From a gamma proteobacterium SCGC AAA076-P13 (GTDB lineage Bacteria > Pseudomonadota > Gammaproteobacteria > Magnimaribacterales > D2472): a stretch of 64,000 nt of DNA. Location of the stretch: positions 12,834 to 76,833 of the forward strand of contig ARRA01000004.1 of the NCBI GenBank assembly GCA_000384935.1. The letters are read 5' to 3'. Positions 13,964-22,071 of the stretch are shown piece after piece (position 1 is the first letter of the stretch; every line of letters starts with the position of its first letter). The notes beneath the pieces are model-generated. The model searched no databases. It was not told the DNA's origin and saw only the letters and a list, made by a program, of their open reading frames with translations. The translations under genes and the position numbers were made by a program.

Positions 13964-14602
13964 TTACTTCCAATTACCTTTTCTTCCTGATAAATCCCAA
14001 TTGATTCTTGACCACATCAATTGGATTCGTCTTTCTATATACCTTTTTGCAAAGAAATCACTCATCTCAGGAAGCGGAACAAACGATGATGAACCTAGGC
14101 CATCAATAATTTTTAGAACGATTAAATTGTCTTCATAGCCCACAACTATATTATGTGGAATGATATTTTTTGTTAAAACTAAACTAGATCTTAGCCAAGA
14201 TTCAAAATCATCTAGAGCTTTCTTTATTTCATCTGTCATGCCAAATGTAAACAAATATTTTTCAAGTGTGATTGCTATATTTTGATTATTATCTAGGACT
14301 AATTCTGTTTCTGATGCTGGCCCTATAGATGTTTCAACCATTCCATACCATCTAGCTAAATGCTTCCATTTATTTGGATTATTATTCTTAAGAGATCTTT
14401 GTTGATAAGCAGATTGCTCTCTAAGATTATCATCAAAGCTTTCTGCTGATCTAAGTTTTTTATACCAAGCTGCATTTTTTTTTACTTTTTCTGATTGGCC
14501 TTCAAAAGAAATCTTAAGACATCTATCTTTTTTTAAAGGATGAATAAAGCATCGCCTATTACCGCCTTGAGCAAAGTACTCGATGTTATTCAGGTTAATC
14601 AT
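13964..14602 (-). CDS. YrbL-family kinase-like protein
   Basis: FAQGGNRRCFIHP..CLKI, YGMVETSIG, NIVV..IIDGLG. Confidence 0.7.
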   Translation of the reverse strand: MINLNNIEYFAQGGNRRCFIHPLKKDRCLKISFEGQSEKVKKNAAWYKKLRSAESFDDNLREQSAYQQRSLKNNNPNKWKHLARWYGMVETSIGPASETELVLDNNQNIAITLEKYLFTFGMTDEIKKALDDFESWLRSSLVLTKNIIPHNIVVGYEDNLIVLKIIDGLGSSSFVPLPEMSDFFAKRYIERRIQLMWSRINWDLSGRKGNWK

Positions 14603-14673: not shown

Positions 14674-14704
14674 TGTTCGCTCTTAATTCAATAGAATTTA
14701 TTAA

Positions 14705-14744
14705 GGGCCTGTAGCTCAGTTGGTTAGAGCAGTGGACTCATAAT
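14705..14744 (+). repeat. attL: 40-bp direct repeat, 5' half of tRNA-Ile2 through the anticodon loop (truncated tRNA)
   Basis: GGGCCTGTAGCTCAGTTGGTTAGAGCAGTGGACTCATAAT is identical to 21995-22034, then diverges (TCCTTG vs CCATTG). Confidence 0.97.
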
Positions 14745-14802
14745 TCCTTGCTACAACTCTAAACCCCCATTCCTACAATGTTTTTTAGTACCACTTTTTA
14801 GT

Positions 14803-14828
14803 ATGTGTCAGTTTTTTTGCGACACACT
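14803..14828. repeat. putative integrase arm-binding sites, left end
   Basis: ATGTGTCAG (14803-14811) and inverted GACACACT (14821-14828) match the right-end AGTGTGTCAG motif. Confidence 0.65.
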
Positions 14829-15629
14829 CTTATTGATAGGCAATGGAAATACACCTTTGTGAATGTTATCAACATTCCTTCTGCCTTTAGTTGTCATTCT
14901 AAAGCCAAGTGCCTTTGCGTACTGAACTTTATCAGCAATGCCTTCTCCTAACTTATTTGTACCAACACCTTCAATGTCATAAACAGTATCGCCTTTTCTC
15001 CACACAGTTCCTTTCTTTCTAATAATCTTCCAACCTCTTAACTCTGCTCCAATCTCTGTAAGTGTTAAACCCTTCTTCCATAAGTCATAAGCCTTTAATG
15101 ACTCAATCATTTCTGTTTCTCTGTTTCTTGCTGATAGTTTTATTTTAAGTCTTGCTCTACTGCCTTTATCGTATTCGTAGTTGTCTCTCATAATGATTTT
15201 TATTCTTTTCATTACATCTTCTTTTGATAGGTATGTTGGTATTGCTATGACTTTAATTCTTTCTTCTTCTATTTCGTCTTTTAGTGATATAGCATCCTCA
15301 TAATTTATAAAGTCAGCAAACTCTAAACTTGGTTCAGCAAATAAAAACTCTCCTCGTCTTTGTCTGTCGTTATCTACTTTCTCATTCCACCAAGTCTTAA
15401 AGTCTTTGTTTCTTATATCTCCAAAGTTTCTGTATAACTTTTGATTACCTTTGCCTTCATTTTTCATTACTTTGTCGTAGTAAGGATTTCGTTTCATATA
15501 CTCAAACCACAAGTAGTAGAAGTTGCTTTCCCACCAAGTTCCATTAGTAGAAGTCTCTACTCCTCTTTGAGTAAAAAGAGGGTGCTTACCCTTAAAACGC
15601 CTGGTTCGAATTGCCTTTAGTTTAGCCAT
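14808..15629 (-). CDS. putative FseA-like (DUF6499/DUF2285-type) transcriptional activator
   Basis: Likely start MAKLKAIR at 15629; LWFEYMKRNPYY resembles DUF6499 WEFLRRNPxY; SLKAYDLWKKGLTLTEIGAEL resembles the DUF2285 HTH. Confidence 0.5.
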   Translation of the reverse strand: MAKLKAIRTRRFKGKHPLFTQRGVETSTNGTWWESNFYYLWFEYMKRNPYYDKVMKNEGKGNQKLYRNFGDIRNKDFKTWWNEKVDNDRQRRGEFLFAEPSLEFADFINYEDAISLKDEIEEERIKVIAIPTYLSKEDVMKRIKIIMRDNYEYDKGSRARLKIKLSARNRETEMIESLKAYDLWKKGLTLTEIGAELRGWKIIRKKGTVWRKGDTVYDIEGVGTNKLGEGIADKVQYAKALGFRMTTKGRRNVDNIHKGVFPLPINKSVSQKN

Positions 15630-15748
15630 AGTTAGTGTGGTGTATATAGATAAGACTATGGTATCAGTATTGAAATATGAACACCACCAAATGTTGGTAT
15701 TCTGTATATATGTTCGCAATAAAGCAGACATAAAAAAAAGGAAATAAT

Positions 15749-16168
15749 ATGAGTAATAGTACCAAAAATCGTTTCGAAGCATTAAGCAACGAAGAGAAAA
15801 AAGAAGTAAGAAAGCAATGGGGCAAAACATACAATAGGCATTTCTATTGTGTATATGTGAAAGATTTTCACACACCTTATTACATAGAAATACCACAACA
15901 AACAGAGCAGTTGAATATGAAATTCAAACTGTTTTATATATGTGATTATTATGGGTTTGAATTAGAAGACATAAGACGAGCATTCAAAGTTTCTATGTCT
16001 CCTTGTTTTCATAATTGGCATCCGAACATACTTGTTGATTTAAGTTATCCAAATACAGAAAGCAACAACACTTATGTAAAAACTTTATCAGAACAAGGAC
16101 GCACAAAAACCTTTGTTTTTGATGAAAAGAAAGTTATTGAAAAAACTACAGAATTGGAGGTGGCGTAA
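15749..16168 (+). CDS. hypothetical element protein
   Basis: 139-aa ORF with AAGGA SD; first of four coupled + strand ORFs. Confidence 0.7.
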   Translation: MSNSTKNRFEALSNEEKKEVRKQWGKTYNRHFYCVYVKDFHTPYYIEIPQQTEQLNMKFKLFYICDYYGFELEDIRRAFKVSMSPCFHNWHPNILVDLSYPNTESNNTYVKTLSEQGRTKTFVFDEKKVIEKTTELEVA

Positions 16169-16710
16169 TGAGAAAGGCAGTAAGAGAATTGCTTAAACAA
16201 AGACAACAAAGTAGCGAAGACTTATTGAAGCAAGTTGATGTTAAGCAAGTTGGAGGTGGCAGAGCAAAAGATTGCTTTAATAATTCTGTAGATTTTGCTG
16301 TTCAAAACAGCGATAGAGAGAGATACAAAATTGTAAGTGGTTGGTTAGTTGGCGAGTTCGATAGAGAGTTTAACGGCACAGCAATCATTCATCATTATTG
16401 GAACTATGATACTAAGACAAAAGAATACATAGACATAACACCAAATATTGATGATAGGGATATGACATACAAATATGTCGTCGACACTGAACTAATGGCT
16501 TACTCACAACAGCCACATATCTACGAGATTATTGATGACTGTGTTGGACATAGTATGTGGTACAGCAATGGTAAGTTTAGTTTAGTCACTAAGCCTTTCT
16601 TAACTCAAATACCAGTTGGTAATTGTGGTTTAGGAACAGAGTTGTTTTTTATGGACTTTGGTGGAGTGGACAAAATAAACAGAGCATTAAAACAAATGGA
16701 GGTGGCGTAA
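16168..16710 (+). CDS. hypothetical protein with candidate Cys-His-Asp (transglutaminase/papain-like) triad
   Basis: GRAKDCFNN..VSGWLV..IIHHYWN..YIDITP; GGAGG SD and TAATG coupling. Confidence 0.6.
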   Translation: MRKAVRELLKQRQQSSEDLLKQVDVKQVGGGRAKDCFNNSVDFAVQNSDRERYKIVSGWLVGEFDREFNGTAIIHHYWNYDTKTKEYIDITPNIDDRDMTYKYVVDTELMAYSQQPHIYEIIDDCVGHSMWYSNGKFSLVTKPFLTQIPVGNCGLGTELFFMDFGGVDKINRALKQMEVA

Positions 16711-16994
16711 TGAATATAGATATGAATGCTTTAGAGCAACATCAAACAACCCTTCTGTTTCATTTTTATGACTTTGGAGATAGAGATGAATTTATAGATA
16801 TGTTGGGTGGAAGAAATACAGATACACACTATGGTATTGATGTTTTTTATTTAAGAACAGACTATGGATATAGCACAGATTGTTTTATCAAAATTGAAGC
16901 AAGAGGTAGAGAAAATGCTGAGATGTTATATGAGCAAATTAGTAATTGGGCTGATGACTGTGGCACAGACACAATGTATTCCTCAATCGTTTAA
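16710..16994 (+). CDS. hypothetical acidic protein (94 aa)
   Basis: Start MNIDMNALE at TAATG junction with GGAGG SD. Confidence 0.65.
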   Translation: MNIDMNALEQHQTTLLFHFYDFGDRDEFIDMLGGRNTDTHYGIDVFYLRTDYGYSTDCFIKIEARGRENAEMLYEQISNWADDCGTDTMYSSIV

Positions 16995-16996
16995 CA

Positions 16997-17182
16997 ATGA
17001 GAAAGAAGCCAACTAACCCTCAACTAAAACACTTAAAACACGAAGTGTATATTGAGCCAACAACAGTCGCACATCACAAGTTTGTATTGAGATGTGCTGA
17101 CTGTGAAGGTGCTTTTATTAAATGGCTTAGTAGGACAGACGCAGAGTTTTTAATGGGGGAAGGTGTTGTTTTTATTTCTTAA
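16997..17182 (+). CDS. small phage-type zinc-finger protein
   Basis: H..HHKFVLRCADC..FIKWLS motif; 61 aa. Confidence 0.6.
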   Translation: MRKKPTNPQLKHLKHEVYIEPTTVAHHKFVLRCADCEGAFIKWLSRTDAEFLMGEGVVFIS

Positions 17183-17423
17183 CAATCTTCCTAATCTCTT
17201 TTGGCTTAATGCCTAACCTCATAAGCCAAGTTAAAGTTGAAATATGCTCTTCGCTTTCTTCTTCAATCAAATCCGATGCTAAGCCTATACACTCATTACA
17301 TATAGCCAAGTTCTCATACCAACCAACATTAGCAACTATAAGTTTCTCAACATCATCTTCAGTTTTATTACAGAAACTACATACGCCCAATTTACGCATA
17401 GATTTTGGTACTTCTTTGCTCAT
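17172..17423 (-). CDS. stand-alone ClpX C4-type zinc-finger domain protein
   Basis: CSFCNKTEDDVEKLI..ICNECIGLASDLI matches ClpX N-domain CSFCGKxxxEVxKLI..ICDECVxLCxxII. Confidence 0.8.
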   Translation of the reverse strand: MSKEVPKSMRKLGVCSFCNKTEDDVEKLIVANVGWYENLAICNECIGLASDLIEEESEEHISTLTWLMRLGIKPKEIRKIVKK

Positions 17424-17704
17424 TAGATTTCTTCTAATACTTTATTTTCTAATTCAACTAAAACCATATCTGCTAACTTCTCGTTTGTTTCATATGAAGT
17501 AAAACCATTTTCTTTAAGTTGTTTTGCTGTCTGCTTTAATCCCACATATAACTTACATAAACTATCGTTGCTGATGTCTTGTCTTCTGTGTTTCATTACA
17601 TACAAATAACTCTTACTCTTTCCTAAGTATTGCTCTGTAAAGTCAACTTTAGTTAAACCTCTGTTATGTTCTTTCAGTGTGTTAAATACCTTGTCTAATA
17701 TCAT
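17423..17704 (-). CDS. small HTH-like protein (DUF6626-like)
   Basis: DFTEQYLGKSKSYLYVMK; strong TAAGGAG SD; coupled to the ClpX-finger ORF. Confidence 0.5.
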   Translation of the reverse strand: MILDKVFNTLKEHNRGLTKVDFTEQYLGKSKSYLYVMKHRRQDISNDSLCKLYVGLKQTAKQLKENGFTSYETNEKLADMVLVELENKVLEEI

Positions 17705-17823
17705 TCTTGTTTCTCCTTAATGTATTACTAATAGTGATAAATAGTAGTAAGTAAAGTAATTAGACATAGCAATGCTACACACTCCCCAAAAGTATGTTTC
17801 AAATTGTTTTAATAGATTTAGTT

Positions 17824-18306
17824 TTATTGTTTATTGCTGTGCTTACTAATAAAACTGCTTCGCAAATCTATTTTATATTTCTTTAATGTGTATCTGCTAA
17901 CAGCATCTCTGTTAGCAATCTGTGTTGCGTGAAATAAGAAACCCTTTTCTCTTTTAGTATTAAGTAGTTTCATATATTCCAATTTTAATAACTCAATCAT
18001 TTGTTCATTCGTAAAACCTTCTAATGTTTTAACTTGTATATGTGCGTGTGTTCTTTTTTCATCACCTTCAATTACTACAGCCCTTTTTATATGAAATTTA
18101 TCTTTGTACTTATATAACTCTCTTCTCCACTCGCCATTTATATTCTTCCCAAATACATCACATTCAATTTTGTAAAATAATCTACACATCAATTCACTCA
18201 TTTGTTCTTTAGTAAGTTCTACTTCTGTATTCAATGTAATAAACAAATCAAAACTTTGTTTGTCTAACCACTCTGTTGTTGCTTCTCTTAACTTGTATTC
18301 GTTCAT
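17824..18306 (-). CDS. minimal HUH-endonuclease rolling-circle Rep
   Basis: Ordered RCR motifs: I FITLN, conserved E, II THAHIQV (HUH), III RYTLK (YxxK). Confidence 0.72.
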   Translation of the reverse strand: MNEYKLREATTEWLDKQSFDLFITLNTEVELTKEQMSELMCRLFYKIECDVFGKNINGEWRRELYKYKDKFHIKRAVVIEGDEKRTHAHIQVKTLEGFTNEQMIELLKLEYMKLLNTKREKGFLFHATQIANRDAVSRYTLKKYKIDLRSSFISKHSNKQ

Positions 18307-18356
18307 ACAAGTTATTTATCAAAACCTTACAGATTAAGGATGTTTTTTTAGACTAA

Positions 18357-18827
18357 CTAAATGTCAGTAGCACTATTTGCCAACTTGGTAACAAGTTCAG
18401 CATTGTCATTAGTTGCTTGGGTATAAGAGTTTTGTAAATCTATATAGGCTTGCTGTTGAGCAATTTGTGCCATTTCTTCAGACTGAAGAACTTCATCCGT
18501 TGCTTGTAGTATTTTTGTTTCTGCTTCGTAATTTAATTCTTGTCTTATTTCCTCTAAGTAATTAAGTGCTTCAGCACAAGTTCCACCACTTCTCATAAAC
18601 TCATCTTGTACATCGTTGTAGTTCATAGTGGGAGTAATGTATGTACTAACTGCTCTGCTTAACTTACTAATCACATTTTGATTTTCACAAGTAAGCCTTA
18701 GCCATTGCCAATCAGCATCACTTATTTGCCCATCAAACTTTGCTTTTGACTTTAATCCCACAATCTTTTCAGCAATACTAACAATGCTTTGAAAACTAAC
18801 CCCTTCAAAAATCTCATATAGTTTCAT
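18357..18827 (-). CDS. hypothetical helical protein, N-terminus MKLYEIFE
   Basis: ORF track 18357-18860; the internal ATG at 18827 is the more plausible start. Confidence 0.6.
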   Translation of the reverse strand: MKLYEIFEGVSFQSIVSIAEKIVGLKSKAKFDGQISDADWQWLRLTCENQNVISKLSRAVSTYITPTMNYNDVQDEFMRSGGTCAEALNYLEEIRQELNYEAETKILQATDEVLQSEEMAQIAQQQAYIDLQNSYTQATNDNAELVTKLANSATDI

Positions 18828-19177
18828 AATTTTTCTGCTTTCCGAACTCTCTTTCCACATAGTTCAACTTTGTAATTCTTTTCTTCTTACCTTCACCCAC
18901 ACTATTTCTTACAGTTTTAATGCTTATTGTTATTTATCGTAATAACTCCGCTTTTGTATTAAATCCTTTAGTTATTGCTCTAAACCCTTGTTAAGCCTTG
19001 TTATTACGGCGTTTGTAATCTTCTGCCTTTTTCGGATGACAGATATAAATTAAGACTTTATCGTTGTACGCAACATAGAACAGAGTTATTGAATGAATAA
19101 AAAGGAAAAAGAAGAAGAATTAAAACGAATGCTTAATGTGACTAATGTGTCTATAGGCAAAACTTGGAGAAAAAAAT

Positions 19178-19753
19178 ATGCGACAAGCAAAAGTGCTGAC
19201 AAAGGAACAAATAAAAAAGGTATTAAAGGTATGCCAACTAACAAGACACGAAGATAGAAATAGATTTATTGTTTATCTTTCTTTTTTAAGTGGAATGAGG
19301 GCAATTGAAATTGCTAACTTGCGAGTAAACAATGTTGTAAATGCTGAAAATGAAGTATTAGACACTATTGCTTTAGACAAAACGCAAACAAAGGGCAATA
19401 AAGGGCAGACTGTTTATGTTGGTAAAGCATTAAGAAAAGAGATTGCTGTTTATTTTAAGAAGTTTCCTCATTTATTAAATAATAAAGAAGGTAGTTTAAT
19501 CAAAACTCAAAAAGGCAAAACAACAAGTGCCACTATTCAGTATGTATTTAAGCAGTTATATGAGTTAGCAAACATACCTAACGCAACATCACATAGTGGG
19601 CGTAGAAGTTTTATAACTGAATTAAGTGAAAAGGGCGTTAGTGTTCGTGTGATACAAGAACTTGCTCGTCATAGTTCCTTACAAACTACGCAAAGGTACA
19701 TAGATGTGAGTGTGCCAAAACTTAAAGGGGCTGTAGATTTAATAAATGTTTAA
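19178..19753 (+). CDS. short tyrosine recombinase (catalytic domain only)
   Basis: SGMRAIEI (R), TKG (K), SHSGRRSF (HxxR), LARHSS (H), TQRY (Y); GGAG SD. Confidence 0.93.
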   Translation: MRQAKVLTKEQIKKVLKVCQLTRHEDRNRFIVYLSFLSGMRAIEIANLRVNNVVNAENEVLDTIALDKTQTKGNKGQTVYVGKALRKEIAVYFKKFPHLLNNKEGSLIKTQKGKTTSATIQYVFKQLYELANIPNATSHSGRRSFITELSEKGVSVRVIQELARHSSLQTTQRYIDVSVPKLKGAVDLINV

Positions 19754-19967
19754 TTATTTAATGGATTTAATTATAGGCGTATTTAATTTCGCCTTTAATT
19801 TCGTGTATTACACCTTAATTATTGTGGGAATATTATTTTTATTCGTAATAATTGGGTAAATGAATGCTTACTAAAGCCTATAACCACAGTATTTTCGGCT
19901 AATTAGACTTAATCTAAGCTTCTCTAAGCAGTTTTATTGAAATATTAGTGTGTTTATACCCAATTAC

Positions 19968-20438
19968 TTAAGTAATGCTTGTTAAGTAGGGTTTTAATAG
20001 GGGAGTTTTCTTAGTAATTTCGGCTGAAATTTCCCAATAATTCTTTGCTGTCATATCAGTTTTACCATTTAAGTATTCAAATAGTTTTTCTGTCTGTGTG
20101 TACTTGTAGTTATCTTCTTCTCCTTTGCTACAAGCAACCCAATCTCCCATTAGTAAACTAATGCCAAAAGCATTCCAACTTTCGAACATACACTTTTGTT
20201 TATCGCTTAAATGAATATCCCTAATAATTATCTCAACTAACTTGTTTACACATTGGTTGTAATCGCTATTGTTAAAAATAGGATGTCGATTTATGAACAA
20301 ATGTATTAGTTCTCTATTGTTAGTTGTGAACTTAACCTCTTCTTCTTCATCTCCAAAAATTAAAGGTACAGTAATTTTTACTGATTGAACTTTTACATAT
20401 TGGTTTTTATAGACTGTTATATTTTCAAACTCATTCAT
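19968..20438 (-). CDS. hypothetical protein downstream of the integrase
   Basis: GAGGAG SD before ATG at 20438 (MNEFENITV), 10 nt downstream of the integrase stop. Confidence 0.65.
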   Translation of the reverse strand: MNEFENITVYKNQYVKVQSVKITVPLIFGDEEEEVKFTTNNRELIHLFINRHPIFNNSDYNQCVNKLVEIIIRDIHLSDKQKCMFESWNAFGISLLMGDWVACSKGEEDNYKYTQTEKLFEYLNGKTDMTAKNYWEISAEITKKTPLLKPYLTSIT

Positions 20439-20448
20439 TCTTCTCTCC

Positions 20449-21873
20449 TCAATCTTCATAGTTCTTTAGTAGTTGCTTCATTGCTTCTACTATTTTCTGC
20501 TCTTCTTTTTTATTAGTTTTTTTGAATTTCATATCACTTGCTAAGCCTACAAAAGCACTTGCTAATGAAGTTGCTTGTGCTTTGTTGTAAAACTTATCTA
20601 ATACGACAGCACTATTTCCTAATTGCTCTGCTACTAAAACTCCATTACTTGTTTCTTCTAATAACTCTGTTGCGTATGTATGTCTCAAACTATACAAACT
20701 TCGTTTGTTGCCTTCTTTGTTCTCATACAGTTTTATATCTTTAAGCAACTTCATAAATGCTTTGCTTGTTTGCTCACTTAACCTTTTGTTTCGTGCTTCT
20801 AACTTTGCTTTACTAAGTTTGCTCACACCAACTTCACTTGCTAATCGCACAACATACTCATCACAGTTAAACAGCTCTTTTAAGCAATCTCTTTTATTCT
20901 TTTCAGTTTTAAGTTTGTTTTTCTTATTGTGCTTGTTCCAAATGTCGCTGCTCTTTTCAGTTCTACTTGCTATGCGTAGTAGGGCGTTTTCAAATGCTCC
21001 ACTTGATGTTCGTATTATTACCTTCCTACTTGCTTTAGTTTTTGTTTCATTCTGTTTTAAGTAGCAAACCAAATACTCTTTTACATCAGCATCACTAAAA
21101 AACTGTTCTTCAACTTTACCTAACGCAGTCACTTGCTCATATTCAAAACTACTAAATCGTACTCGCATTATTTCTAAGCCAACTCTAATAGCACTATGAA
21201 GTAGTAAGAAGTAATAGTCGTATAGCAGTTCTGCTATTTCATTTGTAGTTTTGTTTTTGCTTTTGTTTGCTCGTTTGTTAGTTAGGGCAGTACGGACTTT
21301 TTGTTGCTGTGCTTTTGTAAAATGTAATCTCTTTGTTGCTTCAGTCACATTCGTTTTTACAAAATCAATTTCGTTGTTTATGTAGTTATTGTTTTTAGCA
21401 AACTTCATTAAGGCGTTCCAACTTGCTTGTTGTGTGTTTTGCCTTGTCCTACTTATTGCTTCTTTTCTTTGGGAAACAAACTCTTCTACATCTTGTTCCT
21501 TAATAGCAGTCATCACATAACTGCTAAAAAACTTCATAAACTTATTTTCAATTGTTGTTATGTATTCGCTTTCAATATCTTTAGCAATGCCTTTTTCAAT
21601 TCTGTCTTTAGTTTTAGCAATGTACTCTTTTGCTACAAAACCAAATGTCTTGTTTACAACAACAGCTCCCTTTGTTTCGTTTCTAAAAATATCTTCTGCT
21701 ATTTGTTTTGCTACAGCAGTTGCTTTGCGTAGTTCAGTTTCGCTTGTGCTTTGTCTGTAGTATTTGTTTTTCTGTGTAGCACTCTTCACAGAGACTTGAT
21801 AGAACTTGCTGTTCTTTCTCATACTTAAAGTTATGAAACTATCTACCTTCTTTTCTTTCATACCCTCACTCAA
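20449..21873 (-). CDS. tyrosine integrase of the tRNA-Ile2 element
   Basis: N-terminal arm-binding-like YYRQSTSETELRKA; SAIRVGLE (R), TK, LYSLRHTYAT, QLGNS, KFY; adjacent to attR. Confidence 0.9.
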   Translation of the reverse strand: MSEGMKEKKVDSFITLSMRKNSKFYQVSVKSATQKNKYYRQSTSETELRKATAVAKQIAEDIFRNETKGAVVVNKTFGFVAKEYIAKTKDRIEKGIAKDIESEYITTIENKFMKFFSSYVMTAIKEQDVEEFVSQRKEAISRTRQNTQQASWNALMKFAKNNNYINNEIDFVKTNVTEATKRLHFTKAQQQKVRTALTNKRANKSKNKTTNEIAELLYDYYFLLLHSAIRVGLEIMRVRFSSFEYEQVTALGKVEEQFFSDADVKEYLVCYLKQNETKTKASRKVIIRTSSGAFENALLRIASRTEKSSDIWNKHNKKNKLKTEKNKRDCLKELFNCDEYVVRLASEVGVSKLSKAKLEARNKRLSEQTSKAFMKLLKDIKLYENKEGNKRSLYSLRHTYATELLEETSNGVLVAEQLGNSAVVLDKFYNKAQATSLASAFVGLASDMKFKKTNKKEEQKIVEAMKQLLKNYED

Positions 21874-21920
21874 ATAGTGTAAAATTCACTTCTCTTTTTA
21901 ATAGCAATTATTATAAAGCA

Positions 21921-21956
21921 AGTGTGTCAGAGTGTGTAAGGATTTTTGACACATAT
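21921..21956. repeat. putative integrase arm-binding sites, right end
   Basis: Tandem AGTGTGTCAG / AGTGTGTAAG (21921-21940) plus inverted TGACACATAT (21947-21956). Confidence 0.7.
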
Positions 21957-21973
21957 ATTTTTAGAGATATGCT
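21946..21973 (+). promoter_or_regulatory. element-encoded sigma70 promoter for the restored tRNA-Ile2
   Basis: TTGACA (21946-21951)-N16-TATGCT (21968-21973), 21 bp upstream of the tRNA. Confidence 0.65.
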
Positions 21974-21994
21974 TGTAAAGGTTGATTTAACAAG

Positions 21995-22071
21995 GGGCCT
22001 GTAGCTCAGTTGGTTAGAGCAGTGGACTCATAATCCATTGGTCGTAGGTTCGAGTCCTACCGGGCCCACCA
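21995..22071 (+). tRNA. ileX: tRNA-Ile2 (anticodon CAT, lysidine-modified type); contains attR
   Basis: Full cloverleaf GGGCCTG..CTCATAA..GTAGGTTCGAGTCCTAC-CGGGCCCACCA; resembles ileX rather than Met tRNAs; located downstream of rpoD. Confidence 0.9.

Follow-up and report, generated by a model that had tools for sequence, protein, structure and literature searches.

Integrative mobile elements encapsidated in virions (VEIMEs) are integrated in marine bacterioplankton, mostly use a tyrosine integrase, lack a major capsid gene, measure from under 5 to 16.8 kb and have been inferred to replicate by a rolling-circle mechanism, according to the available part of their description (Eppley et al. 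2022, PMC9618062). Tycheposons, in the portion of the text accessible (Hackl et al., bioRxiv 10.1101/2020.12.28.424599), carry an inward-facing, tRNA-targeting tyrosine integrase at one end, about 40 bp of partial tRNA, a small replication module and cargo; they stack in tandem, and their islands are built by transient visitors. Here we describe an element inserted in a tRNA-Ile2 gene of the gamma proteobacterium SCGC AAA076-P13 (order Magnimaribacterales), within a stretch of 64,000 nucleotides (contig ARRA01000004.1, positions 12,834 to 76,833; the window). It works like a VEIME or tycheposon, and a predicted HUH replicon sets it apart from those in the literature searched. The evidence makes it probable that this is a capsid-less integrative element of the tRNA-Ile2 5′ half that excises as a circle, replicates by an HUH rolling-circle mechanism, travels in phage particles or vesicles, and serves as helper for integrase-less cassettes with the same arms. 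These cassettes, which share the ends of the element, are the main result; they lie outside its coordinates, beyond the view of a first-pass annotation of the window alone.

VEIMEs are defined by concatemers in virions, whereas the present element, which likewise has a marine host, an integrase, a size below 17 kb and no major capsid protein, is known from sequence, with short-read contigs from the runs and a head-to-tail junction in L041. The VEIME supplementary tables, as far as available, contain no mention of HUH, rolling, Inovirus, relaxase or DUF6626, in a comparison by terms rather than by sequences. With tycheposons the element shares the inward tRNA-targeting integrase at one end, the small replication module and the cargo, a likeness in layout. 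Tycheposon replication genes are polymerases, primases and helicases; the accessible text does not use the word 'rolling', and HUH is not among the hallmarks that it gives. Minimalist chromosomal islands inducible by phage (PICMIs) are also small marine satellites without capsid remodelling, with concatemer packaging as the model of transfer, and require int, alpA and a primase next to fis (PMC10803314, in part). Our element has no AlpA or primase match and no fis, its site is tRNA-Ile2, and it is therefore not a PICMI. The partly available account of pDolos (bioRxiv 10.1101/2023.11.28.569023) describes a rolling-circle replicon that hijacks an inovirus; pDolos is a plasmid and not integrative, and no inovirus helper was identified for the element. 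Neither the element family nor an HUH replicon in such elements was found in the literature searched; subscription journals and unread supplements may hold it. DUF6626, PF23343 and related names returned 0 papers there, and the available parts of bioRxiv 2025.08.03.668216, PMC12595487, PMC12379486, PMC10484663, PMC11876622 and bioRxiv 2026.10.07.757358 held no match to the element.

The element is bounded by 40 identical bases spaced 7,290 bp apart (Table 1), as the first-pass annotation had recorded. The duplicated part is the 5′ half of the tRNA up to the anticodon loop, and the element thus lies upstream of the tRNA gene and supplies its 5′ half. We take this CAT tRNA to be Ile2, as the other two CAT tRNAs of the genome carry initiator and elongator-Met features by the identity rules that we assume. 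The 5′-fragment layout occurs in 159 of 3,919 islands in Islander. The G+C content of the element (32.7%) is not distinct from that of the rest of the window. The host genome, 87% complete, comprises 1.31 Mb, and the order is represented by 266 small genomes in four families.

Both empty sites and joined ends were found, as the first-pass annotation had anticipated. At 20 loci in relatives, 14 had a single tRNA without arms, four had two cores, one had only the right arm and one lacked the site; a contig of run X4 skips from 14702 to 21992 and represents an empty site. A scan of Joint Genome Institute (JGI) metagenomes for the left junction yielded 14 contigs: two right-to-left end junctions, one full sister element, one sister fragment, seven with cassettes and three cut short. 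In one of the junctions, L041, sequence 97.2% identical to the right end of the window's element is joined through the core to sequence 99.6% identical to its left end, and L048 contains the same end-to-end junction in a relative. By these identities L041 represents the window's own element, whether as a circle, as a concatemer or as a tandem copy. Parts of the element are held by 20 runs from 13 studies, the best of which is possibly the source sample. In the contigs of run X3 the element was covered in most bins and the host flanks little or not at all; such a pattern would suit a particle fraction or a different host, but we give it no weight, as missing contig cover is not evidence. The empty sites and joined-end contigs bear out the proposed mobile unit, and we conclude that the element is real and recently mobile. 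At the joined ends of L041 (L041:740-830) a perfect 12-bp inverted repeat surrounds the tRNA half, with a predicted hairpin of -15.4 kcal/mol; the versions in the window and in L048 are imperfect, and the right end of L037 was also compared.

Phage-inducible chromosomal islands (PICIs) and P4-like satellites combine a primase-helicase replicon with capsid or terminase hijacking genes, and inovirus prophages carry a Zot/pI ATPase and small transmembrane coat proteins. None of the 13 open reading frames (ORFs) of the element matched a primase, helicase, capsid, type IV secretion system or Zot family in Pfam, PHROGs or NCBIfam. The sole terminase match was sub-significant (E 0.03, on the DUF6626 ORF); no ORF has a Walker A motif, the maximum hydropathy in a 19-residue window is 1.34, and no Rfam family other than the tRNA occurs in the element. 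The absence of recognisable primase/helicase, terminase, capsid, secretion and Zot genes, noted from the letters alone, is thereby confirmed, and identity with a PICI, a P4-like satellite or an inovirus prophage is rejected. A decayed prophage or filamentous phage remnant might be suspected, because PF23343, to which the HUH protein described below is related, takes its name from the replication proteins of filamentous phages, and a few small ORFs have weak PHROG matches. All 13 ORFs are intact at a coding density of 87%, however; L037, L048 and L052 share the backbone and have intact ends but no virion genes; neither a Zot ATPase or Walker A motif nor a candidate for a transmembrane coat protein is present; and near-identical pieces occur in runs of 13 studies. 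This origin is largely refuted, and we find it hard to credit.

The 160-aa ORF, in which ordered HUH motifs had been reported, has no direct family match in Pfam, PHROGs or NCBIfam. Motifs 1, 2 (HUH) and 3 (the catalytic tyrosine) are present in order and conserved. In an alignment of 35 sequences at 16-53% identity H86 is invariant and R74 and Y138 are found in at least 90%; H88 is near-invariant in the 34 close homologues. The PF23343 cut-off is passed by six of 42 distant homologues, and 15 of the 34 close ones match below threshold. A structural model using 34 sequences reached a pLDDT of 82.7, whereas the single-sequence model (pLDDT 44.8) was useless. Among 48,161 chains the best match of the 34-sequence model was the SIRV1 HUH protein ORF119 (Z 7.5, root mean square deviation 3.1, 102 residues aligned), with parvoviral NS1 (Z 6.9) and plasmid RepB (Z 6.0) somewhat lower, and one named viral match is a CRESS Rep. 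Foldseek, proposed earlier as a check, likewise placed HUH proteins, RAYT and adeno-associated virus (AAV) Rep, at the top of its list (E ~0.01). The modelled fold, the invariant histidine, the near-invariant tyrosine and the PF23343 relatives support assignment of this ORF as an HUH Rep-like protein. Sequence searches of the PDB with three profiles gave nothing significant. The HUH profile matches one of the 266 genomes of the order and four of 400 of the class.

An HUH protein could also act as the relaxase of an integrative mobilisable element (IME), with a conjugative element providing the channel, and Rep and relaxase roles are indistinguishable by sequence. [quoted passage not shown] Similar HUH and DUF6626 genes occur in islands of larger-genome Proteobacteria, and the accessory regulator of the element is weakly RovC-like, both of which would suit such an IME. 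However, the element encodes no coupling protein or ATPase, and PF19044 (TraG/VirB4-like) exceeded its cut-off in 0 of the 266 genomes of the order compared with 4 of 14 controls, a result for one family in genomes many of which are incomplete. We accordingly assign the IME a low probability. Since the genomes of the order yielded no conjugation ATPase, packaging by an unrelated phage or in vesicles is proposed as the route of transfer; conjugation seems less likely. ComEC (PF03772) was not found in the element's own, 87%-complete genome.

The element encodes two tyrosine recombinases. The longer is, as first described, an integrase, with R225, K273, R392 and Y424 conserved. It had been given as 474 aa, counted from a TTG codon; the ATG at 21861, at which homologues begin, is the more likely start and gives 470 aa. 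It differs from the L048 integrase by 25 synonymous and 24 non-synonymous codons. The 191-aa recombinase consists of the catalytic domain only, as had been stated, and retains all catalytic residues (R41, K72, H139, R142, H165 and Y174). Matches covering at least 80% of the protein occur in 450 plasmid records, a distribution that fits its predicted role as a resolvase. The 54-aa ORF that overlaps its start may possibly serve in translational control or as an accessory factor.

Homologous gene sets at tRNA-Ile2, another expectation of the first-pass annotation, were found with different cargo in two further elements. The sister L037 (7,002 bp) encodes an identical HUH protein, a 94% identical integrase and a 61% identical resolvase, and its left region is replaced by a HindIII-like restriction-modification pair. 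L052 (8,186 bp), from a Pseudomonadales metagenome-assembled genome, has the same tRNA half and arm motifs and the same gene order: DUF6626, HUH (35%), resolvase (45%) and integrase (about 59%, frameshifted). At L052:15929-16699 it carries a 256-aa cargo protein with a DSGGFQ motif and no Pfam or PADLOC match; presumably the motif is that of tRNA-guanine transglycosylase-like DNA-modifying proteins. DUF6626 is present in 7 of 401 genomes of the phylum, and none of the five new loci looked at has this HUH family. The same integrase, resolvase and regulator families are found with an AAA ATPase at the 3′ half of tRNA-Cys in L075, and integrase and resolvase with a helicase-like gene in L076. The backbone thus belongs to a broader family of small islands in Proteobacteria, whose replication genes are exchangeable. 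Given this recurrence, and given that capsid-less, tRNA-integrated tyrosine-integrase elements are already known as VEIMEs and tycheposons, the earlier proposal of a candidate new class was too strong. Two islands that carry genes resembling type I restriction-modification systems also encode distant HUH homologues: L057 (G523), with a serine resolvase and a tyrosine integrase beside guaA, and L058 (G449), with DUF6626, DUF6641 and a RadC-like gene.

Twelve distinct cassettes of 683-4,262 bp have both arms of the element and no integrase. They were found in five of the 266 genomes (G002, G007, G008, G013 and G152) and in seven metagenome contigs, and form tandem arrays, with five complete units in a row in L047 and two in L038. 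On the left, 15 of 19 units have a TGTGTCA-type motif at about 96 bp from the core; on the right, all 19 have one at 50-78 bp. These counts include duplicates and the two full elements; the whole genome contains 82 motifs of this type. We read them as putative arm-type integrase sites. In L038, L043, L047 unit 4 and L061 a second type of right arm has another sequence with the same motif spacing, which suggests a second integrase subfamily at the same site. The cassettes keep their arms and some right ends hold a decayed integrase start, indicating descent from full elements. Among their cargo are genes for type II restriction-modification (L047, L049) and for membrane proteins that are either of DUF4345 or unknown.

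In two further cargo blocks (G006, G007), with a TonB receptor plus phytase and a glycosyltransferase, only the right arm is kept. The right arm sits at the former tRNA promoter and holds one of the two best promoter-like matches, though these are not above chance, and it may for that reason persist after decay; the two blocks fit such retention. The promoter-like pair in the right arm represents the two best of 17 matches, fewer than the 30 expected by chance. In G006 (L016:2788-6462) and L043 the TonB-dependent receptor and phytase genes adjoin the right arm upstream, replacing the native region upstream of the tRNA. This phosphorus-scavenging block likely arrived by the cassette route. L043 and G006 are 99.8% identical over 6,819 bp, after which L043 has extra cassettes before the tRNA.

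A 990-bp cassette shows 98.3-99.2% identity across three species (G002, G007 and G008) whose rpoD genes are only 82.8-83.7% identical. Outside the cassette, identity drops to 52-61% directly to the left of attL and to 57-79% beyond the tRNA on the right; the start of the cassette is also present in L043 and L050 (97%). Judged from these identities, cassettes have likely jumped between species. They might have done so passively: the element would be mobile and the cassettes its decayed, cis-mobilisable remains, spread by transduction or vesicles and homologous recombination at the tRNA or arms without any integrase. Decay of this kind is documented (PMC5704250, in the available part), and the decayed integrase starts, the lack of element interior sequence in cassettes and the two blocks that keep only a right arm would follow from it. 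Such passive spread is nevertheless unlikely in our assessment. Shared cassette identity ends at attL, with unrelated left flanks in the three hosts, which leaves little homology for RecA, and the fixed distances of the arm motifs despite differing cargo suggest continued use.

The cassettes correspond to cis-mobilisable elements (CIMEs), in that attL and attR are kept and the genes for integration and transfer are lost. The partly available review of IMEs and CIMEs (PMC5704250) describes the same loss of integrase with retention of attachment sites, tandem accretion, co-transfer with an active element, and HUH Rep-like proteins. CIMEs are described there with conjugative helpers, whereas here none was found (PF19044, 266 genomes), the cassettes measure 0.7-4.3 kb, and arrays reach five or more. 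For tycheposons, the extra material in islands was proposed, in the accessible text, to be flanking DNA without clear bounds, whereas here it is bounded by both arms (bioRxiv 10.1101/2020.12.28.424599). Additive flexible islands, as partly available accounts describe them in Actinomarinales (PMC7771536), Alteromonas (PMC4119200) and Methylophilaceae (PMC10872708), also contain marine cassettes marked by partial tRNAs and moved between genera. The Actinomarinales text, as far as available, has no mention of an integrase, whereas here conserved arms link the cassettes to one integrase family. Integrons, which have a resident IntI, an attI site and folded attC sites, were rejected as an explanation: the arrays have no resident integrase, the sites consist of a tRNA half and arms, and the 470-aa integrase has no integron-integrase match in NCBIfam.

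Fifteen genomes contained at least two copies of the tRNA half, and nine were set aside. G147 has a degenerate half around yrbL and G034 a degenerate copy downstream; G164 (L062) has three full tRNAs and no arm-bounded cassettes; the second match has two mismatches in G128 and G216, and is another tRNA in G128; in G011, G125, G167 and G051 the copies lie on different contigs. Four weak right-arm matches (E 1e-5 or worse) were also left out. In L062 the three complete tRNA-Ile2 genes each follow yrbL sequence within 4.3 kb, one block containing Ns, the product of segmental duplication or misassembly. In G147 (L060, reverse strand 2116-2994) a degenerate tRNA 5′ half follows rpoD and precedes yrbL and the full tRNA; from this layout, the patchily distributed yrbL beside the element (window 13964-14602) may be an old domesticated cassette.

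The following cycle would account for these observations. Site-specific insertion upstream of the tRNA restores its 5′ half, with empty and occupied sites both observed. The right and left ends are joined through the core in two contigs, in a circle or a tandem copy, and excision would yield the circle. The HUH protein would nick an origin, host polymerase and helicase would complete replication, and the short recombinase would resolve multimers. The DNA would move packaged by an unrelated phage or in vesicles. A visiting element would integrate beside a resident cassette, then excise with it or free it in trans, and in a new host the cassette would be dropped at this same tRNA, each such event lengthening an array by one unit. 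Accretion, with the element inserting next to a cassette and departing together with it, would be the simplest form of cassette movement; it is documented for CIMEs and proposed for tycheposon islands.

Several observations weigh against this scheme. The junction contigs are not closed circles (L041 measures 1,989 bp, and L048 lacks a terminal repeat), so that tandem integration explains them equally well, and no go-back joint was among the joints listed in seven runs (all contigs). Scans of IMG/VR with the HUH alignment, the left-junction pattern, the integrase and the integrase alignment found nothing, and phage records gave no match to the HUH protein or the 273-aa regulator. The full element is present in only one of the 266 genomes. 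No origin hairpin stood out in its intergenic DNA. The fold scores of the 160-aa ORF are middling, with unrelated ferredoxin-like folds at Z 6.5-6.9, and Foldseek found no PDB match at E 0.001; we accept the HUH fold because these scores combine with conserved motifs. The cassettes share nothing with the element interior and so have no evident origin. None of the 14 contigs or 20 genome loci has an autonomous element next to an arm-bounded cassette, and cassette circles were not seen either.

The remaining features are listed in Table 1. The alignment of 26 left arms includes some duplicate contigs. The small ORFs number eight, plus the overlapping 54-aa ORF, and not seven as first counted. 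For the activator suggested earlier the likeness to RovC/PF20109 is weak, and PF10074 reached only E ~0.1, in four of nine proteins. Activators of the RovC type are a family of conjugative elements. The 273-aa gene is missing from L037 and L052, and none was seen in L048. In the window the leftmost gene ends within the left arm (14808-14830), and so do that of L048 (L048:2135) and a cassette gene of G013 (L018:3749); all three share the final residues VSQKN, and the arm thus supplies the stop codon. A 20-bp near-exact repeat (16152-16171 and 16694-16713) spans the stop/start junctions between the 139-, 180- and 94-aa ORFs together with the ribosome-binding site, and may ease gene exchange in the accessory region.

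Table 1. Features of the element and its attachment site (window coordinates)
Feature	Position	Strand	Basis
attL core, displaced 5′ half of tRNA-Ile2 through anticodon loop	14705..14744	+	40-bp exact repeat; runs into full tRNA at empty sites of relatives
Left attachment arm	14745..14830		Common to sister elements and integrase-less cassettes; conserved TGTGTCA-type motif at 14804; 26 left arms aligned
273-aa putative transcription activator, RovC/PF20109-like (weak), accessory	14808..15629	-	Atlas score 0.93-0.94 to clusters with PF20109 14-37%, PF10074 13%
139-aa ORF, accessory region	15749..16168	+	No family; first 62 aa identical in L041
180-aa ORF, accessory region	16168..16710	+	No family; strong ribosome-binding motif
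94-aa ORF, accessory region	16710..16994	+	No family; strong ribosome-binding motif
61-aa ORF with CxxC	16997..17182	+	78% homologue in sister fragment L036
83-aa ClpX-type C4 zinc-finger protein	17172..17423	-	PF06689 E 3.5e-12; found in L037 and L048
DUF6626 protein, backbone	17423..17704	-	PF20331 E 5.4e-10; adjoins HUH gene in L037, L048, L052, L058
160-aa HUH Rep-like endonuclease (FITLN / HAH / YxxK), predicted, backbone	17824..18306	-	Model pLDDT 82.7; SIRV1 ORF119 best match; conserved H86/Y138; PF23343 relatives
167-aa helical ORF	18357..18860	-	92% in L037, 42% in L048
54-aa basic ORF overlapping short recombinase start, other frame	19093..19257	+	L037 and L048 encode a similar peptide in the same frame
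191-aa catalytic-domain-only tyrosine recombinase, predicted resolvase, backbone	19178..19753	+	PF00589 E 2.9e-26; same-length homologues on plasmids
156-aa ORF (163 aa from upstream ATG), directly behind integrase	19968..20438	-	88-92% in L037 and L048; not found in L052
470-aa tyrosine integrase, inward-facing	20449..21861	-	phrog_1 E 7.6e-15; catalytic residues conserved
Right attachment arm	21862..21994		Two TGTGTCA-type motifs (21922, 21947) and divergent promoter-like pair, toward integrase and toward tRNA; arm alignment
Intact tRNA-Ile2 (CAT)	21995..22071	+	attR core = 21995-22034

How streamlined ocean bacteria, almost without resident integrases, conjugation or competence genes, swap small tRNA cassettes is an open question. 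Mobility genes are reported to be nearly absent from streamlined marine genomes, and the available part of one account describes cassettes in marine genomes with no named mobiliser (PMC7771536). With a specific integrase, its core site and its arm motifs now known, together with an autonomous carrier and a set of twelve passengers, a helper-passenger model can be tested directly. Arm-bounded cassettes are missed by island finders that demand an integrase and at least 2 kb. The element is likely the helper of this cassette pool. A broader view, which we put forward only tentatively and which may well prove wrong, is that of a distributed, integron-like cassette system at tRNA-Ile2, in which arrays of arm-bounded cassettes lacking an integrase would be read and rewritten by an integrase that does not reside in the genome but arrives on a rare rolling-circle satellite, and defence and nutrient cassettes would cross species in borrowed particles. 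With cargo that includes restriction-modification systems and, in a block bounded by the right arm only, a TonB receptor with phytase, movement of these cassettes would affect phage defence and phosphorus uptake.

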